Below, piece after piece: positions 20,107-52,794 of a DNA stretch of 53,557 nt. The position numbers and the translations under genes were made by a program. How positions within the stretch are numbered: the first letter of the stretch is position 1; each line of letters begins with the position of its first letter. This DNA is from Polyangiales bacterium (lineage in GTDB: Bacteria > Myxococcota_A > Polyangia > Polyangiales > Polyangiaceae), in assembly GCA_038231275.1 (NCBI GenBank), contig JBBRLQ010000043.1, positions 1 to 53,557 of the forward strand, in the 5' to 3' direction. The notes below the pieces were generated by a model. The model was not told the DNA's origin. It ran no database searches and saw only the letters and a program-made list of their open reading frames with translations.

Positions 20107-20155
20107 CCGCGCGGATAGAGTGCGCGGAGGGCGCAAATCGGCGACGATTCGACGG

Positions 20156-22927
20156 GTGACGAGCGACGACGGGGGCGATAAAGAAAATCCGAGCGACCGG
20201 GACGACGGCGACACGACGGATACGTCGTCCGATGCGCTGTTGCGCCAGGTGGCGCACGTCTCGGACGTCGAGGCGCCGCGCAGCACGCCGCCGCGCTTCG
20301 CCCACTTTCGTGTCCAGCAGCGGCTCGGTCGCGGTGGGATGGGCATCGTGTATCGCGCGGTCGACGAATCGCTCGGCCGCCTCGTCGCGCTCAAGGTGTT
20401 GCCGCCCGCGCTCGAGGACGACGGACCGCGCCGGCGTCGCTTGATGCGAGAGGCGCGCGCCGCCGCCGCCGTGACCCACCCCAACATCGCGACGGTGTAC
20501 GAGGTCGGCGAGGCCGAAGGGCGCGTCTACATCGCGATGGAGCTGGTGGAGGGAAAGTCGCTGCGCGCGCGCCTCACCGATTGGGATCTGCCGCTCGCGG
20601 AGACCGTGAAGCTCGCCCTCCAGATCGCCGCAGGGCTCGCGCGCGCGCACAAGGCCGGCATCGTTCACCGCGATCTCAAACCCGACAACGTGGTGGTCAC
20701 GGACGACGGGATCGCCAAAATCCTCGATTTTGGCCTCGCCAAGCTCGTCCTCGCGGAGCCTTCGAACGACGGCGACATCGGTCACATGGAGACGATGACC
20801 GAGGATCGCAACATCCTAGGAACGCCGGCGTACATGTCCCCGGAGCAGGCGCGCGGCGAGGCGGTGACGGCAGCGACCGACGTGTTCGCGTTCGGTGTCA
20901 CGCTTCACGAGATGGTGACCGGCGGGCGGCCGTTCAGCGTGACGCCGGCCCACAACGCGGCGCACCTCGTTGCGGAGAGCGCGTTCGATCGCAAAGCGCG
21001 CCGGCCCGAGCTTCCGCCGCTGCTGGAGCGTGCGATCGAGCGGTGCCTGATGACCGACGCGCGCGAGCGGATTGCGGATGGCGCGGCGTTGGTGCGCGCG
21101 CTGGAGGAGGCGGCGACGGAGGTGGCGACGTGGGTGCCGAAGCTCCCGGTGACGCCGCGAAGCAGCGGGCCGCCGGCGCCGCGGGAGCGGGAGGCGCCGA
21201 CGCGGGTAGAGGGCGCGGATCACGGAGCGACGCCGCTGGTGCAGGTTGCGGCAGGGGAGAGGGCGCCGAGACGCCGCGGATGGTGGCTGGGGGCTGCGTT
21301 TGCCGTGATAGCGACGGCGATGGTCGTGATCACGTCGCGCGTGCCGTCGACTACTCGCGTCGTTGCGACCAACGCGGCGTCGAGCAGCGCGGCGCCGTCC
21401 GCTCGGCCGCGCCCGATTGGGCTTTTGGACCACCCGCCGCCCGTTACGAAGAATCCGGAGGCCGCGCAGGCGTACCGACGGGCACTCTCCGATCTGCGCG
21501 ACGCCGCGAGGGCGCCCCAACTGGGGTTTCTACGGGCGCTCGAGCTCGATCCGGAGATGGCGGCGGCGAGCTTGCGCGCGGCGATGTTCATGGGGCAGCC
21601 TGCCTCGAAGGAACAATACAGGAACGCCGTCCGGCTCCGCGACAGCCTCGATGCGCGCGATCGCGACCTTCTGCATGCCGAGGAGCCTATCGGCATGCGC
21701 ACGCCGCCCGACTTCAGGGAGGCGACACGCCGCTATCGCATCCTGCACGAGGCTCGGCCGCTCGACATGGAGGTGCTTCTTCGACTCGCCACGATCGAGG
21801 GAGAGCACGATCGGAAGGCGGCACGCGCTACAATGGAATCCCTGGTCGCCCTCGATCCGACGATGCCAGGCGCCGAGCTTGCCGCCGCGACCAATGCAGA
21901 GCAATCGGACGACGTCGAGTCTGCCCGGCGGCACTACCTCGCTTGCATGACGTTGTCCTCGCTCGCGGCGCTCTGCGTCGTTCGCCAGGCGCGACTGCTC
22001 GCCAAGGAAGGCCGCTGCGACCTCTATGCCAAAGAGATCACGCGCGCACTGACTCTCGAGCCGACGGACTTTTTCTTCCGTCGGGCCGGTGTCGCCGCGG
22101 TGCTCAGCGCGGGCGGTACCGACGACGAGCTCCGTGCTGCGGTCGCCAACGCACTTGTCATCGACTCTACCGCCGTCGCGAAGAGTCACGGCGAAGAGCT
22201 CTCCGGCGCGGTCGCACTCTGGCAGGGCGCCTTCGACAAGGCGCGGGACGCTTTGATGCGTGCCGACGAGGCGGCTCGTTTGGAGGGTTTTGCGAGTACG
22301 ATCTCATGGGTATTCCCGGAGCGGTTGGCGATTGCAGAGGAGCTCGGAGACGAGCTAGCCGTAGCTGCCATGGCGCGCGGGTATGTCGGCGCGCGCGGCT
22401 TGACGACCGAAGGCGATCACGACGGCCTGGTTCTCCGCGCGCTTCGCTCGCATCACGTCCTCCCCGAAGATGCGGTCAGAACCCTTCGTGCTCGCTGGCG
22501 GGCCGACTCGGCGGACCGCGTACCCTGGCAGGTTTGGCTCGAGTACGATGGCGAACCCGCCGTCACAAACGCCGAGGCGCGCGACGCCCTCGGCCTCGTA
22601 GAGGCGAGCGAAGCTCCCCATGCCCTCTCGCCGGTGAACGCGAGCCTAGGTCGTTTGCTCTTGTTGGCTGGCCGCCCCGCCGACGCCGCCGCGCGGCTCG
22701 AGCGGGTTGCCCGCGACTGCGCGCTGCTCGACGGAGATCATTCCCTCGTTCACGTCGCCGTCCAGGCGACCTATGCGCTGGGCATGGCACACGAGGCGAT
22801 GGGCGATCGAGCGGCAGCGTGCGCGGACTATCGCCGGGTCATTCAGCGCTGGGGCGGGGCGAAGCCGCGTTCGACGACCGGCGCCGCGGCGCGGCTCCGC
22901 TCTCAGACGATCAGCTGCTCCGAGTAG
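20156..22927 (+). CDS. Membrane-anchored Ser/Thr protein kinase with extracytoplasmic TPR-like region
   Basis: LGRGGMG.VY, VALK, HRDLKPDN, DFG, GTPAYMSPEQ; single TM; start uncertain (20120/20156). Confidence 0.93.
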   Translation: MTSDDGGDKENPSDRDDGDTTDTSSDALLRQVAHVSDVEAPRSTPPRFAHFRVQQRLGRGGMGIVYRAVDESLGRLVALKVLPPALEDDGPRRRRLMREARAAAAVTHPNIATVYEVGEAEGRVYIAMELVEGKSLRARLTDWDLPLAETVKLALQIAAGLARAHKAGIVHRDLKPDNVVVTDDGIAKILDFGLAKLVLAEPSNDGDIGHMETMTEDRNILGTPAYMSPEQARGEAVTAATDVFAFGVTLHEMVTGGRPFSVTPAHNAAHLVAESAFDRKARRPELPPLLERAIERCLMTDARERIADGAALVRALEEAATEVATWVPKLPVTPRSSGPPAPREREAPTRVEGADHGATPLVQVAAGERAPRRRGWWLGAAFAVIATAMVVITSRVPSTTRVVATNAASSSAAPSARPRPIGLLDHPPPVTKNPEAAQAYRRALSDLRDAARAPQLGFLRALELDPEMAAASLRAAMFMGQPASKEQYRNAVRLRDSLDARDRDLLHAEEPIGMRTPPDFREATRRYRILHEARPLDMEVLLRLATIEGEHDRKAARATMESLVALDPTMPGAELAAATNAEQSDDVESARRHYLACMTLSSLAALCVVRQARLLAKEGRCDLYAKEITRALTLEPTDFFFRRAGVAAVLSAGGTDDELRAAVANALVIDSTAVAKSHGEELSGAVALWQGAFDKARDALMRADEAARLEGFASTISWVFPERLAIAEELGDELAVAAMARGYVGARGLTTEGDHDGLVLRALRSHHVLPEDAVRTLRARWRADSADRVPWQVWLEYDGEPAVTNAEARDALGLVEASEAPHALSPVNASLGRLLLLAGRPADAAARLERVARDCALLDGDHSLVHVAVQATYALGMAHEAMGDRAAACADYRRVIQRWGGAKPRSTTGAAARLRSQTISCSE

Positions 22928-23013
22928 TCGCATTCTTGGACACCTTTTCGACATCTCGTCGTAAATAGTGAAGGCGCGGCCGAGTCGGCCGCATGAGTGG
23001 GGAGGGCTGGAAG

Positions 23014-23337
23014 ATGCGCGACTTTGCAGATCTGGATCTCACGGTGACCATTTCGAGCTGTGGAACAGGACGCGAGTCGCTCCTTGCCTACATTGATAGG
23101 CAATCGTGCCACACGCCCTCCAGCATGGTGAAGTGCCTTCCGCTGTTTGGCTCGACCAAGGTCGAGGACCTTCTGGTTGCGAACCCAAGCCAGGACCTTG
23201 TCGCGATGAAGATGCAGCTAACGGCGGCCCTGGCAGAGTACCAGAGAATAAATCCCCAGACGCCCGGCAAGCCCGATGAGCCTGTGCAGGAGATGACCGC
23301 AATCCTCGCCGCGATCGACCTCGCCAGCACACCGTGA
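23014..23337 (+). CDS. Small protein, putative RiPP precursor
   Basis: GGAGG at 23001-23005 before ATG 23014 (alt. start 22993); 3 Cys and many Ser/Thr in N-half; first gene of a tight operon with modification-type enzymes. Confidence 0.6.
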   Translation: MRDFADLDLTVTISSCGTGRESLLAYIDRQSCHTPSSMVKCLPLFGSTKVEDLLVANPSQDLVAMKMQLTAALAEYQRINPQTPGKPDEPVQEMTAILAAIDLASTP

Positions 23338-23338
23338 C

Positions 23339-24520
23339 GTGAGCAGGGTCGACGCGCCGCAGGGCACGCCTCTGGTCTTGCGCCGCATGCGCGCATGCGC
23401 GCGATTCGAGCTCTTCGCGTACGACGCGCTCGATGAGGCCACCAAGCGTCGACTCGTCCCCTACACTCGGGACGACGATTTCTTCGGAGTCTTGGTCTCT
23501 CGCGATGGAGCCCTCCCGAAGGCGGTGTCCAACCAGGGCGCGCTCCTCTTCCTTGCGCTCCATCGTCCCCAGGCCCTGCCTTCGCTCCTGCGAACGGTGA
23601 TGGAACGGGATCCGGAGATTTTGCGCCGCCTCGTCCTCGATGGCGTCTTAGAGCTGGAGGACGAGGGTGGTTTCGTCTCGGGCCCCGCTGCGCTCTCGCT
23701 CTTTTCGACCGTGCCCCGCAGTCCTGCGTCGCACCCACTCGCGCGCACGGCGCACGATGCCGTTGCGTGCGCGGCCGGGTATGAAGGACTCGAGGCCGGG
23801 GCCCTGGCGCTGCGGGTCTATCAGTTTGGTCGCCTCCCATGCACGCCCGCCCTCCGCAGGCGCTTCATGGCCGACGCGGATCTTGTCTCTTTTCTGACGA
23901 GCGAAACGGATGCAGTAGCGCGGATACGCGGCTGGAACCCGCCTCACGCGGAGGGGGCCTGGCTCCAGTGGAGCAACCAGCACGCCACGCATGCTCCTGC
24001 CTACAAGCTCTACGTGAGCGCTCGCCTAGTCGCGATGCCGCGCGCCTTCGCGCTGACCCTCGAGGCGCTCGACCGGACGACCTGTGGCACGTTCAAGGTT
24101 GGCCGAGGGGGCGAAGGTGTTTGCAGGCCCGACAAGCTGATTGCGTACTTCAATTCTTTCGACGAGCTGCGTGCGTGCGCGACAATTCTAGAGGGGGCAT
24201 TCGCCGCGGCATTTGTCGGGGAGGACTCCGCACACGGGGTTCCGCTTACCGCGCCGGTCGACGCTGCCGGCTACATCTCATGGGGCATGGATCCGCCCGA
24301 GCTTGCGTCGACGGTCACGGGCCTACGCGAGAGTTGGCGGAAGTGGCTCGCCGCTCGCGTTGCCGGCGCGGTCCTTTCGGCGAAGAGGCAAGGGAGTGAA
24401 GATGACCTCGTTGCGTTCGTTCTCGAGCGCCTCGAGCTGGACGGCGTGGACACCTCCGGGTGGACGCCCACCCAAGCGCTCTGGCGCGGGCACGCGGCGC
24501 GCCAAGAAGACGTCGCATGA
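23339..24520 (+). CDS. HopA1-like (LanY-like) putative phosphoSer/Thr lyase with possible N-terminal RRE
   Basis: YKLYVS, FKV, RPDKLIAYF, GVPLT, SWGMDP, ESWR.WLA.RVA motifs. Confidence 0.65.
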   Translation: MSRVDAPQGTPLVLRRMRACARFELFAYDALDEATKRRLVPYTRDDDFFGVLVSRDGALPKAVSNQGALLFLALHRPQALPSLLRTVMERDPEILRRLVLDGVLELEDEGGFVSGPAALSLFSTVPRSPASHPLARTAHDAVACAAGYEGLEAGALALRVYQFGRLPCTPALRRRFMADADLVSFLTSETDAVARIRGWNPPHAEGAWLQWSNQHATHAPAYKLYVSARLVAMPRAFALTLEALDRTTCGTFKVGRGGEGVCRPDKLIAYFNSFDELRACATILEGAFAAAFVGEDSAHGVPLTAPVDAAGYISWGMDPPELASTVTGLRESWRKWLAARVAGAVLSAKRQGSEDDLVAFVLERLELDGVDTSGWTPTQALWRGHAARQEDVA

Positions 24521-26853
24521 GCATTCTCGGCGAGGTCGTTCTCGCGGCGGACGTGGAGATCTTGCCGCTCTCGGAGGTGCCGGAGGCGACTCGTGCAGCG
24601 ATCCCGCATGCAGCCGATGACTACGCCGTCAGCCGGCCGCACAGCCGTTCGGGCTCGCGGATCATTAGCAGCATGTCGCGTGATCTACTCCTCGAGTTTC
24701 GGCAACCCACGCGCATCGTCGATGCAATCGTACGCTTCTCCAAGGCCCGCGGCGCGGACCCGGAGCTGACGCTCGACGACGCCTACCCCATGCTGGCACG
24801 CTTCTACCGGGACGCGCTCCTCGTCTCGCCCGCGCAGCGCGAGGCCGCTCCAATGGCGTCGCACCTCACCGAAGGGCTCGAACTCTTCGGCGTGACGCTG
24901 CGACGACGAGTCCACGCGCTAGACGACACCGAGGTCTTCTTCGGGACCGCCTCTGGGCGACTCTTCGCGGTGAAGGCTCTGCGCGCCGGGATCGATGCAG
25001 CCGAGCGGGAGGCAGACGCGACCCGTCGCGCGCAGCCACGAGCGCCGGAGATCGCCGGCGTTCATGCGTCGGAGGGCGCCGGAGTCATCGTCTCGGAATG
25101 GGTGCTCGGCGAGGACGCCTCGGCCGCCGCAGCAGCCGTTCGTCGAGTAGGAGAGGCGCGCCGCGAATCGGCTCTTCTTTCGCTCTGCTGTGATGTCGCG
25201 GAGGCGATCGCGCAACTGCACGCGGCCGGTGTCGTCCACGGCGACGTCAATCCGAGCAACGTCCTCATCGAGTCTACCGGTCGAGCGCGTGTCATCGACT
25301 TCGGGTTTGCCCACGTCTCGGAAGGCACCGGACCGCCTGCGGTACGCGGGGGCGTCGTATCCTTTTTCGAGCCGGAGCTAGCCTCGGCGGTTCTGCGTGG
25401 GGACTCGTTCCCTGCCACCCTCGCCGGCGAGCAGTACTCCCTCGGCGCCCTCCTCTACCTCATGTGGACCGGCGTGCCGTACGTCGACTGGTCGCTCGAG
25501 CGCGCGAAGACGTTCCGTCAAATCGTCGAGAGCCCGCCCATCCCCTTCGCGCGTCGTCAGGTTCCTTCGTGGCCGGCGCTCGAGGCCGTCCTCTTTCGCG
25601 CACTCGCCAAGTCGCCTGCGGAGCGCTTCGCGTCGTGCGCGGATCTCGCCGCGGAGCTTAGTGCCCTCCTCCCCGCCGCCCGCGCGCGCGACGAGGAGGC
25701 CGCGCGAACAGCGAAGCCCGCCCGCGATCTCACCCGCGAGCTGACGCGAAACCTACTGGAGCGTGTCGGCGTCGGCGGGTCCGCACTGCGCGGCCTCCCC
25801 GCGAGCCCGCCCTATGCGTCCGTCAACTACGGCGCCGCGGGCATCGCGTATGCGCTCTACAAGCTCTCCATCGCGCGCGACGACGCCGAGCTCCTCGCCG
25901 CCGCCGATGTGTGGGCACGCAAGGCGGAGATCCTCGCCGGCGACGATCTCGCGTTTCGCGGCCACGAAGGCGAGATCACCGAGGAGAGCGCGGGCAAGGC
26001 CGCCCTCTTCCACGCGCCGCCCGGCCTCCACGCGGTCCGCGCGCTCGTCGGCCTCGCCTTTGGTGAGCCAACGCGTGCCGCTCCTGCGCTCGAAGATTTT
26101 CTCACCGCGTCGCGCGTCCCCTCGGACAAGCGCGATCTCACCACCGGGAAAGCCAGCCTCCTCCTCGGCTGCTCCGAGCTCCTCGACGCCATGGACGCGT
26201 CCTCCTGCGACACCACGGGTCTGGTGGCCCGCGGCGACGAGCTGCGCGACGAGCTTCGTCGCCTCGTCGCCGCGTCGGACTTCGCCACCGACGAGGCCGT
26301 TCCCTACCTCGGCATCGCGCACGGATGGGCCGGTCTCCTCTTCGCGCTCCTTCGTTGGTCGCAAGCGCGCGGGCAGTCTGCCGAGCCGTACCGCGCCAAG
26401 CTCGACGAGCTCGCCGGCCTCCGCGAGCCACACGGAGCGGGCATGCGTTGGCCCATCCACAACAGGACCGCGCTACAACCGTCGTACATGGACGGCTGGT
26501 GCAACGGCGCTGCCGGACACGCGCTCCTCTGGGCGCTCGCGCACGAACGCCTCGGCGTCGCGGAGTACGCCGTTCACGCCGCGCGCGCCGCAACCTCCGC
26601 GTGGTCCAGCCGGGCCCGCCACGGCACCATCTGCTGCGGCCTCGCCGGCATCGGTTACGCCTGCGCCGCCGTCCATCGCGTCACGGGCGACCCCGCATGG
26701 CTGACGCGCGCGCGCCTCGCGGCCCGCCGCGCGTGCGAGGACCGCTCCGAGCCCAAGTACGTCGACAGCCTCTACAAGGGCGCCCTCGGCGCCACGCTGC
26801 TCTACCTCGAGCTCGACGCGGGCCGGCCCGCGACGCCGTTCTTGGAGCGCTGA
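24517..26853 (+). CDS. Kinase-LanC cyclase fusion (lanthionine synthetase C family) with putative N-terminal RRE
   Basis: Kinase AVK, HGDVNPSN, DFG, EPE; LanC YGAAGIAY, LGIAHGWAG, GWCNGAAG, ICCGLAG, SLYKG; ATGA overlap with upstream gene. Confidence 0.85.
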   Translation: MSILGEVVLAADVEILPLSEVPEATRAAIPHAADDYAVSRPHSRSGSRIISSMSRDLLLEFRQPTRIVDAIVRFSKARGADPELTLDDAYPMLARFYRDALLVSPAQREAAPMASHLTEGLELFGVTLRRRVHALDDTEVFFGTASGRLFAVKALRAGIDAAEREADATRRAQPRAPEIAGVHASEGAGVIVSEWVLGEDASAAAAAVRRVGEARRESALLSLCCDVAEAIAQLHAAGVVHGDVNPSNVLIESTGRARVIDFGFAHVSEGTGPPAVRGGVVSFFEPELASAVLRGDSFPATLAGEQYSLGALLYLMWTGVPYVDWSLERAKTFRQIVESPPIPFARRQVPSWPALEAVLFRALAKSPAERFASCADLAAELSALLPAARARDEEAARTAKPARDLTRELTRNLLERVGVGGSALRGLPASPPYASVNYGAAGIAYALYKLSIARDDAELLAAADVWARKAEILAGDDLAFRGHEGEITEESAGKAALFHAPPGLHAVRALVGLAFGEPTRAAPALEDFLTASRVPSDKRDLTTGKASLLLGCSELLDAMDASSCDTTGLVARGDELRDELRRLVAASDFATDEAVPYLGIAHGWAGLLFALLRWSQARGQSAEPYRAKLDELAGLREPHGAGMRWPIHNRTALQPSYMDGWCNGAAGHALLWALAHERLGVAEYAVHAARAATSAWSSRARHGTICCGLAGIGYACAAVHRVTGDPAWLTRARLAARRACEDRSEPKYVDSLYKGALGATLLYLELDAGRPATPFLER

Positions 26854-27996: not shown

Positions 27997-28117
27997 CTGC
28001 CCAGTCTCGCATGACGAATGATGCTCGCGCCCTCCCGCGATCGTGTAGGAAGAGCGGCGCAAAGACCGGGGATCGCCCCTGCTCGATGCAAGCTTGCGCG
28101 CAACGCCGCTTTTTCAC

Positions 28118-28157
28118 TTGCGAAATGGCGCGCCGCACGTAAAGTACGCCTCCCCGC
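28118..28157 (+). promoter_or_regulatory. Putative sigma70-type promoter for rplV block
   Basis: TTGCGA-N16-TAAAGT-ACGCCTCCCCGC, T tract upstream; same architecture upstream of rpsD. Confidence 0.65.
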
Positions 28158-28327
28158 CGGCCCCTTGCCGTCGGTTTTTGCCTCGATTTCTCGCTAGTTT
28201 CATTCAGTTGGCCGCCGTAACGGCTTCGCGGAACCGAGCTGGTTCACCAGCCCGAACCCGAAAGTACGACGGGGTCAGCGAGTCGGGCTCTTCGGAGAAC
28301 GGCGCTCTTTCAGGAGAAGGTCTACTC

Positions 28328-28672
28328 ATGGTGTCCAAGGCGATTGCCCGCTTCTCGCGGATCAGCCCGCGCAAGGCTCGGGTCATGGTCAATCTGGTTC
28401 GCGGCCGTCAGGCCGGCGAGGCGCTCCAGCTTCTGGAGTTCACCAAGAAATCCGGCGCTCCGATCCTGAAGAAGATCATCGAGAGCGCCGTCGCGAACGC
28501 GCGCACGACGAGCCCCGGCGTCGACGTCGACGCCTTGTTCGTCGAGACCGCGTTCGTCGACAAGGCCCCCAACAAGCACATGCGCCGCTGGCGCCCCCGC
28601 GCCATGGGCCGCGCGACCCGAATTCAAAAGGGCCTGAGCCACATCACCGTCATCCTCGGAGAGCGCGCGTAA
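28328..28672 (+). CDS. rplV: 50S ribosomal protein L22
   Basis: RISPRKAR...SAVANA...[18 protein letters not shown]. Confidence 0.98.
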
Positions 28673-29397
28673 TGGGACAGAAAGTTCATCCGTACGGCTT
28701 CCGCCTCGGCATCATCAAGACCTGGAACTCGAAGTGGTTCGAGGACAAGGCCTACGCCAAGTGGCTGCACGAGGACATCCGCATCAAGCGCGCGGTGAAG
28801 GACTACTTGATGAACGCGAACATCGCGGGCGTCGAGGTCGAGCGCGCCGCGAACAAGTGCAAGGTGATCGTCTTCACCGCGCGCCCCGGCATGGTCATCG
28901 GCAAGGGCGGCAAGGGCATCGAGACCCTGAAGATCGGCAACCTCAAGACGGCCGCCAAGGGTGAGCCGCTCTTCGCCGGCGTGCAGAGCTTCACGGACAA
29001 CGAGGTCTTCATCGACGTCCAGGAGATCCGCAAGGCGGAGACGAGCGCGCAGCTCGTCGCCGAGAACGTCGCCACGCAGCTCGAGCGCCGCGTCGCGTTC
29101 CGCCGCGCGATGAAGAAGGCCGTGTCGACGGCGATGAAGTTCGGCGCCAAGGGCATTCGTATCCGCTGCTCGGGTCGCCTCGGCGGCAGCGAGATGAGCC
29201 GCGTCGAGACCTACCGCGAAGGCCGCGTCCCGCTCCACACGCTCCGCGCCGACATCGAGTTCGGCACCGCGGAAGCACGCACCAAGTACGGAATCATCGG
29301 CTGCAAATGCTGGATCTTCAAGGGTGAGGTCCTCCAGCGCCGCGTTCGCCGCCCGCAGACGGGCATCGGCTCCGTCCCCGGTCCTACGGGCACCTGA
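28672..29397 (+). CDS. rpsC: 30S ribosomal protein S3
   Basis: [33 protein letters not shown]. Confidence 0.99.
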
Positions 29398-29421
29398 AGC
29401 CGCACCTGAAGCGGCACCTGA
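29390..29421 (+). repeat. 12-bp tandem repeat (gcacctgaagc[c/g], about 2.7 copies) across rpsC stop
   Basis: gcacctgaagcc gcacctgaagcg gcacctga. Confidence 0.8.
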
Positions 29422-29445
29422 TTTCCAGATTCTAGAGGAAGAGAC

Positions 29446-29859
29446 ATGCTTTCCCCCAAGCGCACCAAGTTCAGGAAGATGCAGAAGGGCAACAACCGCG
29501 GCCTCGCGCGCCGCGGGTCCGACGTTGACTTCGGCGATTTCGGCATGCAGGCGACCGAGCCCGGCCGGATCACGTCGCGCCAGATCGAAGCGGCGCGTAT
29601 GGCGATCACCCGCCACGTGAAGCGCCTCGGCAAGCTCTGGATCCGCGTGTTCCCGCACCGCCCCGTCACCAAGAAGCCCCTCGAAGTTCGAATGGGTGGA
29701 GGCAAGGGCAGCGTCGAGGAGTGGTCGGCCGAGATTCAGCCCGGTCGCGTCATGTACGAGATCTCGGGCGTCGACGAGCCGACCGCGCGTGAGGCGTTCC
29801 GCCTTGCCGGCCACAAGCTCCCCGTTGGTTACAAGTTTCTCGCCCGAGGAGTCGTCTGA
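29446..29859 (+). CDS. rplP: 50S ribosomal protein L16
   Basis: [30 protein letters not shown]. Confidence 0.99.
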
Positions 29860-30224
29860 TGAAGGCCAAGGACTTGCGTGAGCGGAACCAGGAAGACCTC
29901 GTGGAGCTCGAGAAGAGCCTCGCGAAGGACGTCTTCGAGAACCGCCTCAAGAACTTCACCAACCGGCTCGACGACACGAGCACGATGAAGAAGGCGCGCC
30001 GCGATCTCGCGCGCGTGAAGACGATCCTCGTCCAGCGCAAGCTCGGCCAGACGCCGGTCCTAGGAGCTTCGGTTCCCAAGGCCGAGAAGCCGGCCGCCGC
30101 TCCGAAGGCTGCCAAAGCGCCGAAGGCCGCAAAAGCGCCCAAGGCGGAGGCCTCGGCGCCGAAGGCGGCCGCGAGCAAGCCGGCTGCCGCCAAGAAGACG
30201 ACCAAGAAGAGTGAGGCCAAGTAG
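29859..30224 (+). CDS. rpmC: 50S ribosomal protein L29 with Lys/Ala/Pro-rich C-terminal extension
   Basis: MKAKDLRE...RRDLARVKT core; position between rplP and rpsQ. Confidence 0.95.
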   Translation: MKAKDLRERNQEDLVELEKSLAKDVFENRLKNFTNRLDDTSTMKKARRDLARVKTILVQRKLGQTPVLGASVPKAEKPAAAPKAAKAPKAAKAPKAEASAPKAAASKPAAAKKTTKKSEAK

Positions 30225-30226
30225 CC

Positions 30227-30526
30227 ATGACGACCCAAGCAGCAACGCAGCCGACACCTGAGGTTACCGCGCACGGCTTCCGTCGGAAGATCGTCGGCAA
30301 GGTCATCAAGGACAAGATGAACAAGACGGTCGTCGTCGAGTGCGTCAACGCGCGCCGCGACCCGCTCTACGGGAAGTACGTACGTTCGCGTGTCCGCTTC
30401 AAGGCGCACGACGAGACGAACCAGTACAAGGTCGGCGATCACGTCGAGATCCAGGAGCACCGCCCCATCTCGAAGGACAAGCGATTCATCGTCGTCCGTC
30501 TCGTCAAAAAGTTCGTGGAGGAATGA
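30227..30526 (+). CDS. rpsQ: 30S ribosomal protein S17
   Basis: [26 protein letters not shown]. Confidence 0.98.
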
Positions 30527-30530
30527 GCAA

Positions 30531-30899
30531 ATGATTCAGGCGAAAACCACCCTGGACGTTGCCGACAACTCCGGCGCGAAGCTCGTCCAGTGCATCAAGG
30601 TCCTCGGCGGCTCGCGCCGTCGGTACGCCACGATCGGCGACGTCATCGTCGTCGCGATCAAGGAAGCGCTCCCCGGCACCAAGGCGAAGAAGGGCGAGAC
30701 GGCCAAGGCAGTCGTCGTCCGCACCCGCCGCGAGCAGGCGCGCCCCGACGGCAGCTACATCAAGTTCGACGCGAACAGCGCCGTCCTCATCAACGATCAG
30801 ATGGAGCCCATCGGCACCCGTATCTTTGGACCGGTCGCCCGCGAGCTCCGCGGCAAGAAGTTCATGAAGATCATTTCGCTCGCTCCCGAGGTGCTGTGA
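30531..30899 (+). CDS. rplN: 50S ribosomal protein L14
   Basis: [35 protein letters not shown]. Confidence 0.99.
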
Positions 30900-31234
30900 T
30901 GGCCTCCCGTCTTCGCAAAGGCGACACCGTCGTCATCATCAGTGGCAAGGACAAGGGCAAGACCGGCAAGATCTCCCGCATCATGGCCGAGGACGGCAAG
31001 GTCGTCGTCGAGGGGATCAACCTCGTCAAGCGCCACATGAAGCCGACGCAGAGAAACCCCCAGGGCGGCATCCTCGAGCGCGAGCAGCCGCTCGCCGCCT
31101 GCAAGGTGATGCCCGTGGACCCGAAGACGGGCAAGGGCACGCGCGTCCGCTTCAAGACGGACGAAAAGGGCCACAAGGTCCGCGTCGCCGTGAAGAGCGG
31201 CGAAACGATTCAGAACGCAAAGGCTGAGGAATAG
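30899..31234 (+). CDS. rplX: 50S ribosomal protein L24
   Basis: [28 protein letters not shown]. Confidence 0.98.
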
Positions 31235-31237
31235 GCC

Positions 31238-31879
31238 ATGGCTGCCGAGAAGAAAGAGAAGCCCCAGAAGGGCTCCAAGAAGGGCGGAGCGGAAGAGGCT
31301 CCCAAGGCCAAGGTCGTCAGCAACACGACGGCGATCTCACCGCGTATGGCGACGAAGTACGTCGAGACCATCATCCCGGCTCTCACCAAGCAGTTCAGCT
31401 ACACGAACCCGAACCAGGTTCCCAAGCTGAAGAAGATCGTCATCAACATGGGCCTCGGCGCCGCCGTGACCAACCCCAAGATCGTCGACGCCGCCGTCGA
31501 GGAGCTCCGCGCGATCACCGGCCAGAAGCCGATCGTCACGCGCTCCAAGAAGGCCATCGCGAGCTTCAAGCTCCGCGCGGGCATCCCGATCGGCGCGATG
31601 GTCACGCTGCGCAAGGCGCGCATGTGGGAGTTCTGGGATCGCCTCGTCTCGCTGGCGCTGCCGCGCACGCGTGACTTCCGCGGCGTGTCCCGCAAGGCGT
31701 TCGACGGGAAGGGTAACTACACGCTCGGCCTCCGCGAGCAGATCATCTTCCCCGAGATCAACTACGACCGCATCGACGTCATCAAGGGACTCAACATCTC
31801 CTTCGTGACCTCGGCGACCAACGACGAAGAGGGGCGCGCGCTGTTGCAGCACCTCGGAATGCCCTTCCGGGCGGCCTGA
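31238..31879 (+). CDS. rplE: 50S ribosomal protein L5 (N-terminally extended)
   Basis: [34 protein letters not shown]. Confidence 0.99.
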
Positions 31880-31892
31880 AGAGAGAACGATC

Positions 31893-32078
31893 ATGGCGCG
31901 TGCAAGTCAGTTCGCAAAATTGAATCGAGCCCCGAAGTTCGCCGTACGGCACCGCAGCCGCTGCAAGGTCTGCGGCCGCGCGCGGAGCTATTACCGGAAA
32001 TTCGAGCTTTGCCGCATTTGCCTCCGCTTGCTCTCGCTCCGTGGAGAAGTCCCGGGCGTGATCAAGGCGAGCTGGTAG
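31893..32078 (+). CDS. rpsN: 30S ribosomal protein S14, zinc-binding type
   Basis: 61 aa, CKVCGR...CRIC, PGV.KASW. Confidence 0.97.
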
Positions 32079-32089
32079 GAGAGAACGAA

Positions 32090-32485
32090 ATGCTGACCGA
32101 TCCGATCAGTGACATGCTGGCCCGTCTGCGCAACGGCGCCCTCGCGCGCCATGACCGCGTAGAGATGCCGCACTCCTTCCTGAAGCAGCACATCGCAGAA
32201 GTGCTCAAGGGCGAAGGCTTCGTCGACGACGTGCGCACGAGCGAGGGCGAAGGCCCCAAGGTGCTCACCGTCGTCCTTCGCTACGGCCGTGGCAAGGAGA
32301 GCGCTATCGACGGCGTTCGCCGCGTCTCGACGCCGGGCCGGCGCGTGTACGTCCGCTTCGACCGCATCCCCAAGGTCCGCTCGGGCATGGGCGTGTCGGT
32401 CCTGTCGACGAGCAAGGGCGTGATGACCGACAAAGAAGCGAAGAAGCAGCGCATCGGCGGCGAGCTTCTCTGCGAGATTTGGTGA
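32090..32485 (+). CDS. rpsH: 30S ribosomal protein S8
   Basis: TDPISDML.R.RN, STPGRRVY, STSKGVMTD..A....GGE. Confidence 0.99.
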   Translation: MLTDPISDMLARLRNGALARHDRVEMPHSFLKQHIAEVLKGEGFVDDVRTSEGEGPKVLTVVLRYGRGKESAIDGVRRVSTPGRRVYVRFDRIPKVRSGMGVSVLSTSKGVMTDKEAKKQRIGGELLCEIW

Positions 32486-32489
32486 TCCC

Positions 32490-33086
32490 ATGACTGCTCA
32501 GACCTCGCAAAAAGCACCGACGGATCTTCGCCAGTCGCGCACGGGCAAGCGCCCGATCCCGCTCCTGAAGGGCGTCACCGCCACGATCGCCAACGGCAAG
32601 ATCGACGTCAAAGGCCCCAAGGGCAACCTCTCGCGCACCATCACGCCGAACGTCGACGTGAAGGTCGCGAACGGCGAGATCACCGTCGCTCCGACGGTCG
32701 GCGGCCGCGACGGCGCGCGCTTCCAGGGCCTCGCCCGGGCGCTCATCGCCGGAATGGTCGAAGGCGCCGGCAACGGGTACGTGAAGACGCTCCAGCTCGT
32801 CGGCACGGGTTACCGCGCCGAGCTGAAGGGCACCATGCTCAACATGGCGCTCGGCTTCTCGCACCCCATCAACTTCCCCGTCCCCCAGGGCATCAAGGTC
32901 GAAATCCCCGGCGACAGCAAGGGAACGCTCATCATCCTGTCCGGTGCGGACAAGGAGCGGATGGGCCAGACCGCCGCCAAGCTGCGCGGCTATCGTCCGC
33001 CGGAGCCTTACGGTGGAAAGGGCGTTCGTTACCAGGGTGAGAAGATCCGCGAGAAGGCGGGCAAGGCCGGAAAGGGCGGTAAGTAG
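32490..33086 (+). CDS. rplF: 50S ribosomal protein L6
   Basis: SR.GKRPI, VKGPKG.L, LGFSHP, RPPEPY.GKGVRY. Confidence 0.99.
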
Positions 33087-33088
33087 TC

Positions 33089-33448
33089 ATGGCGATGCAG
33101 ATCGTTGGGCGGGAGCGTCGCAAGCTCCGTATTCGCCGGAAGATCAGCGGGACGGCTGTGAAGCCGCGCCTCACCGTGTTTCGCAGCGCGAAGCACATCT
33201 ACGCCCAGGTCGTGGACGACGTGACGGGCAACACCGTCGCGCACGCCTCCACGCTCACCAAGGAAGTTCGTACGGCCATCGACGACGCGACCAAGAGCGA
33301 CGCGGCGAAGAAGGTCGGCGCAGCGGTCGCGAAGCTCCTCCTCGCCAAGGGGATCAGCCACATCGTCTTCGACCGCAACGGCTACCTCTACCACGGGCGC
33401 GTCCGCGCTCTTGCCGACGCCGCGCGCGAAGCCGGTCTCAAGTTCTAG
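33089..33448 (+). CDS. rplR: 50S ribosomal protein L18
   Basis: [38 protein letters not shown]. Confidence 0.99.
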
Positions 33449-33501
33449 GTCAGGGAGAGCGTGCCGCTCCCCCCGACACCCCTCAGCAGGAATCTAAAGC
33501 C

Positions 33502-34044
33502 ATGGCGTTCGTTCAAGTCGACGAAGAGAAGCTCAAGGAGCGGATCATCCACATCAACCGAGTCGCGAAGGTCGTCAAAGGCGGCCGGCGCTTCTCGTTC
33601 GCGGCGCTCGTCGTCGTGGGCGACGAATCCGGGCATGTGGGTGTCGGTCTCGGCAAGGCCAACGAGGTCCCCGAGGCGATCCGCAAGGGCAACGACCAGG
33701 CGCGCAAGAACCTGTTCAAGGTTCCGCTCAACGGCGTCACGATCCCGCACGAGGTGCTCGGTCACTTCGGCGCCGGTCGCGTCTTCCTCCGCCCGGCCTC
33801 GGCCGGAACGGGCGTCATCGCCGGCGGCGCCGTCCGCGCCGTCGTCGAGAGCGCGGGCATCCACGACATCCTCACGAAGTGCATCGGTTCGTCGAACCCG
33901 CACAACATCGTCCGCGCGACGATCACGGCCCTCCGGGAGCTGAAGAGCCTCGAGATGGTCGCCACCAAGCGCGGGAAGGAAGTGAGCGACATAATCGCTC
34001 AGGACCGTAAGAGCTCCGCCCAGCTCCCGGAGGCGTCGCCGTGA
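33502..34044 (+). CDS. rpsE: 30S ribosomal protein S5
   Basis: [31 protein letters not shown]. Confidence 0.99.
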
Positions 34045-34232
34045 GCACGAAGAAGCTGAAGGTCAAGCAGACGAAGAGCCTCATCGGTCAGAGCCACCCG
34101 ATGCGCCTCACGATCAAAGGTCTCGGTCTCGGTCGTCCGGGGTCCGAGGTCACGGTGGCGAACACGCCCAGTTTCCGCGGTGCGATCAAAAAGGTCATGC
34201 ACCTCGTGAAGGTCGAGGAAGTCAATGGCTGA
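34041..34232 (+). CDS. rpmD: 50S ribosomal protein L30
   Basis: KSLIG, T.KGLGL, RG.I.KV.HLV; position rpsE-rplO. Confidence 0.96.
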
Positions 34233-34680
34233 CACGCTTTCGAATCTCAAGAAGCCGGAAGGCGCCACCAAGAAGAAGACCCGTCGCGGTCGTGGTGTCG
34301 GCTCCGGCCTCGGCAAGACCGCTGGCCGTGGCCAGAAGGGTCAGTACGCGCGCACGCGCGGCTTCAAGCCGCACTTCGAGGGCGGTCAGACCCCGATGCA
34401 GCGCCGCCTGCCGAAGCGTGGCTTCAACCCGCCGTTCCCCGCCAAGATCGCCGAGATCAACGTGGGCGACCTCGAGGTCTTCGCCGCCGGCGCCAAGGTC
34501 GACGAGAAGGCCCTGCGCGCGAAGGGGCTCATCAAGGGCTCCTACGATCGCCTGAAGGTCCTCGGCGACGGCGAGCTCACCAAGAGCGTCATCGTCACCG
34601 CCGACGCGTTCTCGAAGACCGCGGCCGCCAAGATCCAGAAGGCTGGCGGCAAGGCCGTTTTGGCCTCCGCGCAAGCCTAA
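34225..34680 (+). CDS. rplO: 50S ribosomal protein L15
   Basis: [33 protein letters not shown]. Confidence 0.99.
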
Positions 34681-34715
34681 GCAGCACGCATGAGCAGGCA
34701 GTAAGAAAGGAACGC

Positions 34716-36059
34716 ATGGCGTCGCTCGCCGGATTCGCGAACATCGGGAAGGTGCCGGAGCTCCGCAAGCGGGTGCTCTTCACCCTCGGCATGCTCGCCG
34801 TTTACCGGATCGGAGTCTTCGTCACGATCCCCGGCGTCGACCGGAACGTGATGCAGGCCGTCGTGAGCAAGCAGGGCGGGGGTCTCCTCGGCCTGTTCAA
34901 CATGTTCTCGGGCGGCGCCCTTTCCAATCTCTCGATCTTCGCGCTCGGCATCATGCCGTACGTCAGCGCGAGCATCATCCTCCAGCTCCTGACGATGGTC
35001 TTCAAGCCGCTCGACGAGCTCCGCAAGGAAGGCGAGTCGGGCACGCGAAAGATCAACCAGTACACGCGCTACGGCACGATCGTCCTGTCGATCGTCCAGT
35101 CCTTCGGCATCGCGATGACGCTCGAGGGGATGAACAACGGCGACCTCTCCGACACCGGTCGCGTCGGTGACGTCGTGATCCACGCCGGCTGGGGCTTCCG
35201 CCTCATGACGATGATCACGCTCACCACCGGCACCGCGTTCATGATGTGGGTCGGCGAGCAGATCACCGAGCGCGGCATCGGCAACGGCATCTCGCTCATC
35301 ATCTTCGCGGGAATCGTCGACGGCATCCCCGCCGGCATCTTCAACTACTTCGCGACGAACAAGGGCAACATCCAGCCCCTGAACCTCGCGGCCGTGACCG
35401 CGGTCGTCCTCGCGACGGTCGCGACGATCGTGTTCTTCGAGCGCGGCCAGCGCCGGATTCCGATTTATTACGCACGAAGAACCGTGGGCAGACGCGTGTA
35501 CGGCGGGCAGACGGCGCATTTGCCGCTCCGCGTGAACACGAGCGGCACCATCCCGCCCATCTTCGCGTCGTCGCTCTTGATGTTCCCAGCGACGCTCGCG
35601 AGCTTCAAGATCCCGGGCATGGCGAACCTCCAGGCGGCGCTCCAGCGCGGCGACTGGCTGTTCAACACGTTCTACGTCGCCCTGATCATCTTCTTTTGTT
35701 ACTTCTACACCGCCGTCACCTTCCAGGCCGTCGACGTCGCCGACAACCTGAAGAAGCAGCAGGCGTTCATCCCGAGCATTCGCCAGGGCAAGCAGACCGC
35801 CGAGTACATCGACCACGTCTTGACGCGCATCACCCTGGGTGGCGCGATCTACGTGTCGGTCGTGTGCATCGTGCCTTCGGTCATCAGCCAGGCGTTCCGG
35901 GTCCCGTTCCAGTGGGGCGGCACCTCGATCATGATCGTCGTCGGTGTCGCGCTCGACACGGTCAGCCAGATCGAGGCGCACCTCATCACGCGCAACTACG
36001 AGGGGCTGAGCGGGGGTGGTGGTCGGGCCACGCGCATCAGGGGAAGGCGTGACGTATGA
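34716..36059 (+). CDS. secY: Preprotein translocase subunit SecY
   Basis: [46 protein letters not shown]. Confidence 0.99.
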
Positions 36060-36694
36060 GCGGCCTCAGGCTCGTATTTTTGGGACCGCCCGGCGCCGGC
36101 AAGGGCACGCAGGCGAAGGTCATCTGCGAGAAATTCGGGATCCCCCAAGTATCGACGGGCGACATGCTTCGCGCCGCGAAGGCCGAGGGCAAGCTCCCGA
36201 AAGAGCTCGTCGAGGCGATGGGCAAGGGCGCGCTCGTTCCAGACGAGGTCGTCATCGGCCTCATCGCCGAGCGCACCAAGGCGCCCGACGCCAGCAACGG
36301 CTTTCTCCTCGACGGCTTCCCGCGCACCGCGCCGCAGGCCGATTCGCTCGGCAAGATGTTGGCGGGTCGGAACCTGAAGCTCGACTGTGCCCTGGCGCTC
36401 GAGGTCCCCCGCGAGATGCTGGTCGAACGGGCCGTCCTCCGCCGCACGGACAAACGGACTGGACAGATCTACCACTTGAAGTATAAGCCTCCGCCCGCTG
36501 ACTTGCCGCCGGCCGATTTGGAGCACCGTGCGGATGACCACGAAGACATTGTGAAAAACCGCCTCGACACCTACGAGAAGATGACGAGCGAGCTCCTCCC
36601 CTACTACGAGAAGCTCGGAATGCTGAAACGAGTGAACGGGCAGGGAGCGGTCGAAGAGGTCACGCAGCGCGTGCTGCAAGCGCTGAAGAACTGA
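36056..36694 (+). CDS. adk: Adenylate kinase
   Basis: [30 protein letters not shown]. Confidence 0.98.
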
Positions 36695-36719
36695 AGACCG
36701 AGGAGATTCTGGATTCCTA

Positions 36720-36962
36720 ATGAGTGAACGTCGCGAGAGAAAAGAGCCCAAGGGCGACAAGCTGGAGTTCGACGGCGTCGTCCAAGAGGCGCTGCCCAAC
36801 GCGATGTTCCGCGTGAAGTGCGACAACGGGCTCGTCGTCCTGGCGACCATCAGCGGCAGGATGCGTCAGTTTTACATCCGCATTCTCCCCGGCGATCGCG
36901 TCACCGTCGAAGTCAGCCCCTACGATCCCAGCCGCGGCCGAATCACCTACCGCCACAAGTAG
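36720..36962 (+). CDS. infA: Translation initiation factor IF-1
   Basis: [31 protein letters not shown]...GRI.YR. Confidence 0.99.
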
Positions 36963-37005
36963 CCGCTCACAAGTAAGTCGTTCCGAGTAACCGAGAGAGC
37001 ACGTC

Positions 37006-37119
37006 ATGAAGGTCCGTCCGAGCGTCAAAAAGATTTGCGACAAGTGCAAGGTCGTCCGCCGCAAGGGCGTCGTGCGCATCATCTGTGAGAACCCGCGCCA
37101 CAAGCAGCGCCAGGGTTAA
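37006..37119 (+). CDS. rpmJ: 50S ribosomal protein L36 (not in ORF track)
   Basis: [37 protein letters not shown]. Confidence 0.99.
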
Positions 37120-37136
37120 GGTCAAAGGAACTCACC

Positions 37137-37520
37137 ATGGCTCGTATTGCAGGCGTCGACCTTCCCCGACACAAGCACGTCGCGTATTCGCTCCCGTACC
37201 TCTACGGGATCGGTAAATGTACCGCCTTCGAGATCTGCAAGAAGGCCGGCATCCCGCCGACCAAGAAGACCGAAGAGCTGACCGAAACCGACATCAAGAA
37301 GATCCGCGAGCTCCTCGAGACCGAATACAAGGTCGAGGGCGATCTCCGCCGCGAAGTTCAGATGAACATCAAGCGCCTGATGGACCTCGGTTGCTACCGC
37401 GGCCTCCGTCACCGCCGCGGCCTGCCGGTCAACGGCCAGCGCACCCACACCAACGCGCGCACCCGCAAGGGCCCGCGCAAGGGCCTCGTTTCTCGCGCGG
37501 TGCGCAAGCCGACGCCCTGA
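37137..37520 (+). CDS. rpsM: 30S ribosomal protein S13
   Basis: [41 protein letters not shown]. Confidence 0.99.
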
Positions 37521-37575
37521 GAAGCGCGCTTCTCATTCAGTAAAAAGTTTCGTATTTTTGGAAAGAGATTGAGCC

Positions 37576-38007
37576 ATGTCGACTGCAGGTAAGACGAGCG
37601 GAGGGCCGGTTTCGGCCGCGCCGACGAGCAAGAAGCCCGCCAAGAAGAAGGTCAAGAAGAACATCTCGACCGGGATCGCGCACATCCAGTCGACGTTCAA
37701 CAACACCGTCGTCACGATCACCGACGTGAACGGGAACTCCGTCGCGTGGTCGTCGGCTGGCTCGCGCGGCTTCAAGGGCTCGCGCAAGTCGACGCCGTTC
37801 GCCGCCCAGCTCGCCGCCGAAGAGGCCGCGCGCAAGGCGATGGAGCACGGGATGCGCAGCATCGCCGTCTTCGTGAAGGGCCCGGGCGCCGGCCGCGAGA
37901 GCGCGCTTCGTGCGCTCCAGACCTCCGGCTTCAAGGTCACGCTCATCCGCGACGTTACGCCGGTCCCGCACAACGGCTGCCGCCCCCCGAAGCGCCGCCG
38001 CGTCTGA
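37576..38007 (+). CDS. rpsK: 30S ribosomal protein S11
   Basis: [38 protein letters not shown]. Confidence 0.99.
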
Positions 38008-39748: not shown

Positions 39749-39861
39749 CCTCGCGACGGGACGGGCTTCAGATCAAGGGGTTTGCAGGAATCGCCCGTCG
39801 TCACGCGCCACGCGGCAGATTGTCGCGGCGTCGCCACAATCGGGTGCTACACCTGGGCCCC

Positions 39862-48725: not shown

Positions 48726-48778
48726 GCCGAGCTCCGCCAGTACTAAAGGGAGCTTTGCACTCTAGCTGACGAGCATCG

Positions 48779-50218: not shown

Positions 50219-50219
50219 G

Positions 50220-52043: not shown

Positions 52044-52164
52044 TCCTCTGGAGCACGCCGGGATGAAGCCCTTCGCCACCTGGCGAAGGCGTGTAAACCG
52101 GGTTTCTGGTTCCTCCGTCCGTTCTGTCGATTGCGGCGCGGAGGACCCAAAAAAGGTAATAAAA

Positions 52165-52794
52165 ATGGCTCGTTACATCGGTCCGGTCTGCAGGTTGTGC
52201 CGCCGGGAGGGCATGAAGCTCTTCCTCAAGGGCGAGCGCTGCTACTCGGAGAAGTGCTCCTACACCCGCCGGCCGTACCCGCCGGGTCAGCACGGCCAGG
52301 GCCGCATCAAGCTCAGCGAGTACGCCGTTCGTCTCCGCGAGAAGCAGAAGGTTCGCCGCATTTACGGCGTCCTCGAGCGCCAGTTCCGCGAGTACTACTT
52401 CGACGCGACGCGCCGCAAGGGCCGCACCGGCGAGCAAATGCTGGGGCTCTTGGAGAGTCGCCTCGACAACGTCGTCTACCGCCTCGGCTTCGCGGCCACG
52501 CGCGTCGAAGCGCGCCAACTCGTCCAGCACGGCCACATCAACATCAACGGCAAGCGCGTCGACATCCCGAGCTACCTCCTCCGCAACGGGGACAAGATCG
52601 AGATCCGCGAGAAGAGCCGTGAGCTGAAGCTCATCGCCGCGTCGCTCGCCCAGGTCGAGAAGCGCCCGATGATGTCGTGGCTCGAGCTCGACAAGGCGAA
52701 CTTCGCCGGCACCTACAAGGGCCAGGCGGTCCGCGAAGAGATGAACGAGCCGCAGATTCGCGAGCAGCTCGTCGTCGAGTACTACTCGCGCTGA
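52165..52794 (+). CDS. rpsD: 30S ribosomal protein S4
   Basis: [45 protein letters not shown]. Confidence 0.99.

Follow-up and report, generated by a model that had tools for sequence, protein, structure and literature searches.

A candidate operon for thioether-bridged peptides in a Polyangiales bacterium, with a lyase-like protein encoded apart from a kinase-cyclase fusion

How might a peptide be dehydrated and cyclized at a locus where the kinase and the cyclase are joined in one chain and the putative lyase is encoded in another? The question is raised by three consecutive open reading frames (ORFs) on the plus strand, A, B, and C, that span positions 23014-26853 of a contig from a Polyangiales bacterium (JBBRLQ010000043.1); the window analyzed is the whole stretch of 53,557 nucleotides (nt), with ~68% G+C, and coordinates are positions in it, on the forward strand unless a locus or strand is named. 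A encodes a precursor-like peptide of 107 amino acids (aa), B a stand-alone protein of 393 aa resembling phosphoserine/phosphothreonine (phosphoSer/Thr) lyases, and C a protein of 778 aa with a Ser/Thr kinase, a LanC cyclase, and an N-terminal domain like the recognition elements (RREs) of pathways for peptides made on ribosomes and modified after translation (RiPPs). Judging from comparative sequence analysis and predicted structures, we consider it probable, at about 70%, that A-B-C is an operon complete in itself whose product is a ribosomal peptide with thioether bridges of the lanthionine type. A sequence-only reading of the locus had proposed a precursor, a stand-alone lyase, and a kinase-LanC protein without a lyase domain, outside the described classes; by computation, the predicted fold of B, the partial match of C to class IV synthetases, and the conservation of the triad bear this proposal out.

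A conserved three-gene unit

Gene A (23014..23337) opens with an ATG at 23014, 8 nt downstream of a GGAGG ribosome-binding site read from the sequence (23001..23005, plus strand), and closes with a TGA at 23335-23337. Gene B (23339..24520) begins with a GTG at 23339, 1 nt past the stop of A, and ends with a TGA at 24518-24520, which the ATG of gene C (24517..26853), at 24517, overlaps as ATGA. The tight coupling noted in the sequence-only reading is thereby visible in the letters themselves. A, B, and C are genuine coding genes by their third-position G+C bias (0.73, 0.77, and 0.83, respectively, compared with 0.58-0.59 in antisense ORFs). The start of B is the sole soft gene boundary: a database copy (P0004, 377 aa) starts 16 codons downstream, and the GTG is favored because the residues before that later Met are conserved across homologues. 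Rfam, promoter, and terminator scans around the operon gave nothing above chance.

Relatives of B are numerous. Searched against 1.84 billion representatives, a profile of B matched 1595 clusters formed at 50% identity, 1145 of them at E ≤ 1e-30; the top 150 are all 358-507 aa long. Relatives were located at 380 places in species-representative genomes. The genome survey was anchored on B with one genome per species, and the best 80 of these 380 places were fetched, a set outside the neighborhoods of the window's closest relatives (48-71% identity). By our own assignment from record titles, the 80 loci fall into ten phyla, namely, Acidobacteriota (46), Chloroflexota (8), Actinomycetota (7), Pseudomonadota (5), Gemmatimonadota (5), Eremiobacterota (3), Nitrospirota (2), Planctomycetota (2), Bacillota (1), and Bacteroidota (1). 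B gave no match in phage records. In RefSeq, B is named 'hypothetical protein' and C 'lanthionine synthetase LanC family protein'.

In all 80 loci, the gene directly after B, in the same orientation, encodes a homologue of C; it was full length and in one piece in 71, the others being in pieces or cut by contig ends. Pairwise identity matrices of B and C were strongly correlated across 64 loci (r = 0.92, a value reached by none of 999 permutations), which is as expected for a jointly inherited unit and is not proof of co-evolution. A tblastn search of A against the 80 loci found no match, and the A-like family was traced by position and motif instead. Counts were restricted to the 74 loci in which 450 nt or more precede B, the flank being too short in the other six. 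An A-like ORF was recognized by motif in 57 of the 74 and by a hidden Markov model (HMM; E ≤ 0.01) in 13 of the 17 motif-negative loci, giving 70 of 74. With C behind B throughout, the neighborhoods preserve, across ten phyla, the triad that the sequence-only reading had picked out. The A-like ORF lay 3' of C in loci L003 and L005, two or three copies were present in L035 and L037, and two further ones, in L024 and L077, were spotted by eye only.

The precursors share a three-part design: an N-terminal motif, a hypervariable middle, frequently built of repeats, in which Cys, Ser, and Thr abound, and a helical tail that has no Cys. The motif, from 45 aligned precursors, is M-x-F-[KR]-x-[KR]-[DE]-L-x-[VI]-x-[VI]-x-P, with the short form F-x3-[DE]-L; the tail consensus, from 24 long tails, is LaaLKaQL..aLaqVE.qE....m.PqT.....LE.KL.eALEEL. 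In 58 sequences, including that of the window, 675 Cys and 964 Ser+Thr were counted among 5930 core residues (11% and 16%), Ser+Thr matched or exceeded Cys in 57 of them, and the 2061 tail residues include no Cys. The window peptide can be divided in the same way. Residues 1-14 (23014..23055) form the putative recognition motif MRDFADLDLTVTIS, in which the stretch MRDFADLDLTVTI matches the family motif at F4, D8, and L9; residues 15-61 (23056..23196) are the core, where 3 Cys accompany 10 Ser/Thr; and residues 62-107 (23197..23334), beginning LVAMKMQLTAALAEYQR, form a Cys-free tail, the stretch aligned by the precursor HMM. This HMM, built from 57 related precursors, ranked A first among 759 six-frame segments of the window (E = 0.0053; next, 0.57), and A also occupies the position typical of the family. 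No NCBIfam model covered the precursors, 55 of which were scanned and gave chance matches to helical proteins only. As judged from these alignments, the pattern of conserved ends around a hypervariable Cys/Ser/Thr-rich middle is substrate-like.

Some loci carry unusual forms of these genes. A plasmid-borne precursor of Paenibacillus peoriae (L081:4011-4763; NZ_CP011513.1), a 250-aa protein encoded just before B, has the motif-core-tail cassette in three tandem copies, each with the motif MFRTVDLAANV, a 3-Cys core, and a helical tail, and the protein opens with an additional tail copy. On a Bacillus paramycoides plasmid (NZ_CP152428.1), no A-like ORF was visible upstream of B (L082). Directly 3' of C, this plasmid encodes a 595-aa protein (L082:8766-10553) in whose gene a 132-nt unit recurs 12.2 times in tandem, every repeat with Cys and many Ser/Thr, and which ends in a short helical stretch resembling the family tail; a large, divergent S8 serine peptidase (L082:774-4409) adjoins B. 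The ORF at the A position of L077 (2813-3067) has the motif variant MPKIIDLAINSIP, a short tail, and a Pro-Asn repeat middle.

Domain composition of proteins B and C

The 34 relatives of B retrieved by word index were unnamed or 'hypothetical' and without a Pfam domain, and the assignment of B comes mainly from its predicted structure. An AlphaFold model built on the homologue alignment reached a predicted local distance difference test score (pLDDT) of 91.6 and a predicted template modeling score of 0.88. All 18 Foldseek matches to it in the PDB at E ≤ 1e-3 were phosphoSer/Thr lyases or lanthipeptide synthetases containing one, led by LxmY (1.1e-6) and including HopA1 (6e-6; template modeling [TM] score of 0.58 on the target), CuvL, SpvC/VirA, OspF, ThurKC, and SalKC. 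Sub-threshold Pfam matches in the homologues to RamC_N, the class III lyase domain (11 of 34), and to HopA1 (4 of 34) coincide at residues ~205-320; the best HopA1 score of any homologue was 20.4 bits (cut-off, 22.7), and B of the window had no match to that family. Language-model neighbor clusters of B with scores of 0.97, 0.92, and 0.92 carried PF17914 (HopA1) on 13%, 85%, and 100% of their members, respectively. A phosphoSer/Thr-lyase fold of B is supported by these models and comparisons, and the HopA1-type fold that the sequence-only reading had expected in the middle protein is recovered in its predicted structure.

The putative lyase domain of B occupies residues ~200-393 (23936..24517), where K223-L-Y225, K253, R263-P-D-K266, and Y270 are invariant in 34 B sequences. 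The essential residues R187, K219, R229, and Y236 of CaoY correspond to K104, K136, R148, and Y158 of SpvC (PMC9486802; this and the other papers cited are drawn on in excerpt). The spacing K253-10-R263-7-Y270 in B equals that of K219/R229/Y236 in CaoY, with a further Lys 30 residues before K253, and we infer from it that K223, K253, R263, and Y270 of B may be the counterparts of the catalytic residues of CaoY. In front of the lyase domain, residues ~15-125 (23381..23713) resemble the N-terminal domain of C: hhalign aligned the first ~125 residues with that domain over 87 columns (P = 3.5e-4, probability 37%), compared with P = 0.34 for the C-terminal part of B as a control, and the two N-terminal models have an identical order of strands and helices. 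The likeness is suggestive of a relationship between the two domains.

C was compared in an alignment of 52 sequences, made up of that of the window and 51 of the 71 full-length homologues. Residues ~125-400 (24889..25716) are a Hanks-type kinase by Pfam, alignment, and profile, and K153, E165, H241-G-D243, N248, and the D261-F-G motif mark its active site; K153, E165, H241, D243, N248, and D261 are invariant in the alignment. The kinase, in which the sequence-only reading had pointed to HGDVNPSN and DFG, is intact. Its best solved relatives in searches with the family profile were StkP and PknB (E = 4e-33 to 1e-31), and the StkP match begins at profile position 124-125, in agreement with the ~130 aa that the same reading had placed ahead of the kinase. 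A Pfam match to APH covered 32 residues at 22.9 bits (cut-off, 23.2).

Residues ~438-778 (25828..26850) form a LanC-like cyclase, matched at full length by Pfam LANC_like (profile positions 9-339 of 350, E = 1.8e-21), with H602, C662, C706, and C707 invariant in the 52 sequences. In a residue alignment with LANCL1 and GCR2, the AHG and WCxG motifs are kept and CHG is replaced by CCG, the third zinc ligand being Cys in 52 of 52 sequences; the site can therefore be read as Cys-Cys-Cys. The zinc-ligand motifs claimed from sequence alone are thus present in AHG and WCxG, whereas the third ligand is not the His of the usual motif. A Cys-Cys-Gly zinc motif has been reported as a mark of substrate-tolerant, ProcM-like enzymes (PMC8524650).

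Among NCBIfam models, LanL fitted C best, over positions 256-808 of 851, with its lyase part unmatched and a score of 128.3 bits, far below the cut-off of 650 (NF038150); the LanKC model scored 76.8 bits (cut-off, 575). The lyase domain RamC_N was absent from all nine longer relatives of C that were scanned. With the family profile, the cyclase part matched LANCL1/2 at ~1e-32 and the class IV enzyme CuvL at 5.6e-22, mostly via the kinase part of the latter, and a search with the single cyclase sequence found LanCL-type chains only. C is built like a LanL without its lyase, yet it is not a close LanL relative, since StkP/PknB and LANCL1/2 outscore CuvL. From these comparisons, C seems to have been put together independently and not to derive from a LanL by loss of the lyase.

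The N-terminal residues 1-110 of C (24517..24846) are not matched by Pfam in the window sequence (~110 aa); in the 52 sequences, sub-threshold matches to ThcOx (8), DUF7782 (9), and PqqD (3) were seen. Modeled alone, the region folds with a pLDDT of 87.5 into strands followed by three helices; RREs are leader-binding winged-helix domains with a sheet of three strands and three helices. Foldseek ranked PqqD best (4.8e-3; TM score of 0.67 on the target), together with TigE, TbiB1 with a leader peptide, TglHI, MibB, and ThcOx, with MccB lower; Rickettsia PKMT methyltransferases took ranks 9-11. PqqD, TigE, TglHI, MibB, ThcOx, and MccB we take to be RRE-carrying proteins, and the title of the TbiB1 entry states this directly. 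A profile search of the PDB returned nothing relevant for this domain, and language-model neighbors gave no usable match. That residues 1-110 are an RRE-like domain and not a lyase remnant is supported by the model, not proven. The sequence-only reading had considered this region too short for a lyase; no lyase was matched there, and the region is predicted to be a folded domain of another kind instead of a shortened remainder. Class III enzymes bind the leader without an RRE (PMC10604976), so that the RRE-like domain of C is a real difference from them.

Two C homologues have irregular reading frames. In Bacillus pfraonensis (L039:9195-9260), there is no ATG, GTG, or TTG at the conserved N terminus; a strong AAAGGAGGGGG site precedes an in-frame ATA at 9200 that agrees with the first residues of the family and suggests a non-canonical start. 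In Micromonospora halophytica (L010:9118-11493), the gene has an in-frame stop at codon 666, from a pseudogene or a sequencing error.

Proposed function and competing explanations

How the domains fold in the models, the invariance of catalytic residues, the linkage of the genes in ten phyla, and the way A varies, as a substrate would, allow a route to be proposed in which the chemical steps, the contact between B and C, the assignment of a domain to either end of A, and what becomes of the tail are all conjectural. The RRE-like domain of C would bind the N-terminal motif of A, and the related domain of B might bind the same motif or the conserved C-terminal tail. The Hanks-type kinase of C would then phosphorylate Ser/Thr in the core, and B, as a HopA1/LanY-type lyase, would eliminate the phosphate in trans, in the manner of LanY with LanK, so that dehydroalanine or dehydrobutyrine remains; LxmK and LxmY are reported to form a heterodimer (PMC12141560). 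Lastly, the zinc LanC domain, with its Cys-Cys-Cys site, would add the Cys thiols of the core to the dehydro residues to close the rings.

On this proposal, A-B-C would combine dehydration by a kinase and a lyase, as in classes III-V, with a zinc LanC, as in classes I, II, and IV. Class IV LanL enzymes (CuvL, PDB 8CAV/8CAR) are like C in placing a Ser/Thr kinase before a zinc LanC-like cyclase in one chain, and A-B-C would share with them dehydration by phosphorylation and elimination. C differs in having no on-chain lyase (positions 1-255 of the LanL model are unmatched) and an RRE-like N terminus in its place, in the third zinc ligand, which is Cys rather than His in an otherwise shared domain with two common Cys ligands, and in falling below the NCBIfam equivalog cut-off, with kinase and cyclase scoring better to StkP/PknB and LanCL than to CuvL. 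The precursor differs as well: in contrast to lanthipeptide precursors with a leader followed by a core, A opens with a short N-terminal motif, has its core in the middle, and closes with a long conserved tail.

Class V LanK/LanY systems (LxmKY, PDB 9DK1-3; CaoK/CaoY) provide the closest parallel for B, which likewise has the predicted HopA1 fold in a stand-alone protein accompanied by a separately encoded kinase, with LxmY as its top structural match and the Lys-10-Arg-7-Tyr spacing of CaoY. Here, however, the kinase is of the Pkinase/Hanks type and fused to LanC, rather than a free APH-type LanK (PF01636), a LanC is present whereas class V pathways have none, and B has Lys at the place of CaoY Arg187 and an additional N-terminal domain. 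The kinase, lyase, and cyclase logic also recalls class III LanKC (ThurKC, PDB 8SAM), whose lyase domain is among the fold matches of B; LanKC is, in contrast, a single chain without zinc ligands, whereas here the lyase is separate, the zinc ligands do not vary, and C has an RRE-like domain.

ProcM-like class II synthetases resemble A-B-C in the Cys-Cys-Gly motif tied to promiscuity (PMC8524650) and in hypervariable cores, and differ in carrying a lipid-kinase-like dehydratase on the LanM chain, with neither a separate lyase nor a Hanks kinase. Class VI LanKCb of streptococci is, like C, a kinase-centered lanthionine synthetase. Reviews describe it, in the parts drawn on, as one chain with truncated lyase and cyclase domains, found in Streptococcus only (PMC10676316, PMC12328550); compared with that description, the LanC of C is full length and there is no on-chain lyase. 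LanCL1 and LanCL2, the closest solved relatives of the cyclase by sequence, are stand-alone proteins with a Cys-Cys-His site and no dedicated peptide substrate. The domain comparisons support the view that the A-B-C layout fits none of the described classes I-VI: the absence of an on-chain lyase places it outside classes III, IV, and VI, and the fusion of a Hanks kinase to LanC places it outside class V. Six classes were still counted in 2026 (PMC13509491). Literature searches, mostly outside subscription journals, found no description of the layout, and the part of a 2020 review of classes III and IV drawn on here (PMC8341899) does not describe it.

Several observations count against the assignment of A-B-C to lanthionine-type peptide synthesis. 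A is a divergent, weak family member (HMM E value of 0.0053, 3 Cys), its long conserved tail is unlike known lanthipeptide precursors, and the A-like ORF of L077 has no Cys. No protease, exporter, or immunity gene was conserved across the loci when larger ORFs were clustered, a clustering in which no further gene was common to more than six loci; with the long conserved tail, this implies that the locus may make something other than a small peptide that is released. The N-terminal domain of C had no Foldseek match at E ≤ 1e-3. For B, neither the window sequence nor the family profile found a lyase among PDB sequences, the fold scores are modest (E ~1e-6, TM scores of 0.3-0.58), the catalytic residues are mapped by spacing, and the acid His of SpvC is replaced by Tyr. 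The cyclase of C, in turn, is nearest to LanCL1/2, which are glutathione transferases.

The last of these points opens the possibility of an external thiol, in which the LanC domain would act like eukaryotic LanCL and add a small thiol to, or cap, the dehydro residues, with no rings formed within the peptide. The far better profile match to LANCL1/LANCL2 than to CuvL and the LanCL-type chains found by the single-sequence search are as such an activity would have it. The Cys-rich cores, nearly all with Ser+Thr at least equal to Cys, are, however, what intrapeptide rings require, and the Cys-Cys-Cys site is that reported for ring-forming ProcM-like enzymes (PMC8524650), and we regard a LanCL-like activity as unlikely.

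It is somewhat less likely still that B and C are a signaling or protein-editing pair acting on cellular proteins, with A an unrelated Cys-rich protein, perhaps metal-binding or structural. The kinase is indeed closest to ordinary Hanks kinases, phospho-lyases of the B fold target host kinases (PMC9486802), and extra kinases adjoin the module: in 23 of the 80 loci (examples are L013, L017, L020, L021, and L027, those of Thermoanaerobaculia being double-kinase proteins) and also in the window, it is immediately preceded by a further Ser/Thr kinase gene of the same orientation. A-like genes nevertheless occur with B-C in 70 of 74 loci and have the conserved ends and hypervariable middle of the RiPP pattern, and C carries a domain with the predicted fold of RiPP leader-binding domains.

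We think it very unlikely that B is a non-catalytic partner, such as a substrate chaperone or scaffold, with dehydration done otherwise or not at all. The resemblance of its N-terminal part to the leader-binding-like domain of C would suit such a role, the OspF-type His acid is absent, and B of the window lies below every Pfam threshold. The HopA1-like motifs attributed to the middle gene from its letters did not appear in Pfam searches of B itself, which gave 0 families at E ≤ 1, and were recovered through the fold search, the sub-threshold matches of homologues, and the language-model neighbors. A scaffold would, on the other hand, leave unexplained the Lys/Lys/Arg/Tyr set that is invariant in 34 sequences and whose CaoY equivalents are required for elimination (PMC9486802), and LanY enzymes are likewise without the OspF-type His. 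Finally, a class IV LanL gene split by a frameshift or assembly error, for which the LanL model as best NCBIfam match to C might speak, is hardly credible and was rejected because B and C are separate in all 80 loci; in addition, the best 150 B relatives keep to one length range and proteins of 689-2000 aa gave no B match (weak evidence against a B-C fusion), C has its own N-terminal domain that folds in the model, and B carries ~200 aa more than LanL lyase domains.

Genomic surroundings and significance

The extra kinase in the window is a Ser/Thr kinase with tetratricopeptide repeats by Pfam (20120..22927, plus strand) that ends 87 nt before gene A. The upstream kinases of other loci resemble it in the kinase domain alone, and its membership in the A-B-C system is uncertain. 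PADLOC gave generic kinase-domain matches for this kinase and for C only, and none for A or B; a defense-system reading was dropped.

The three genes end a block inserted in a string of ribosomal-protein genes (109-2544, 28094-38007, and 52063-52794) that is interrupted twice: S10, L4, L23, L2, and S19 are followed by ~25.5 kb of unrelated genes ending in A-B-C, then by L22 through S11, ~14 kb of unrelated genes, and S4. No L3 gene lies between S10 and L4, which are 24 nt apart. Scans of the window for tRNAs and repeats found no edges for the inserted blocks, including the 25.5-kb block with A-B-C. Elsewhere, a TfuA and YcaO pair on the minus strand (46799-51890) adjoins a flavin adenine dinucleotide-dependent oxidoreductase and a DUF3556 membrane protein, and a large kinase with an AAA_16 domain (42755-46543) lies beside the pair; the region may be a second peptide-modification locus, of the thioamide type. 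A repeat-rich stretch (38247-41374), with four units of ~160-300 nt and tandem steps of 12-15 nt at 40545-40792, probably encodes a repetitive protein. At 5770-10256, an ATP-binding cassette (ABC) ATPase gene precedes an ORF of 1296 aa in which an ABC-2 membrane domain and an M1 peptidase domain are fused.

Lanthipeptide classes are sorted by how dehydration and cyclization are divided among domains, and A-B-C divides them with an RRE-like domain, kinase, and cyclase on one chain and a lyase-like protein on another, in a system that is widespread yet unannotated. As a tentative and rather doubtful extension, the genes might represent an independently assembled, RRE-guided lanthionine machinery, effectively a further synthetase class, common in soil phyla and acting on protein-sized, often repetitive substrates, among them one whose core has as many as 33 Cys and the 595-aa repeat protein beside the Bacillus module. 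The N-terminal domains of C and B, being related, would recognize the two conserved ends of the substrate (N-terminal motif and C-terminal helix), so that the substrate itself would bring the lyase to the kinase-cyclase. The helical tail would stay on the product, which would serve as a cross-linked material or a surface protein and not as a small antibiotic. If the proposed chemistry is true, the family would hold a large untouched set of poly-cyclic peptides and would offer a natural case of a kinase and a lyase working in trans alongside a true LanC. It would also provide an RRE-dependent route into kinase-type lanthipeptide synthesis and would show how such machines can be assembled from ordinary Hanks kinases and LanCL-like proteins.

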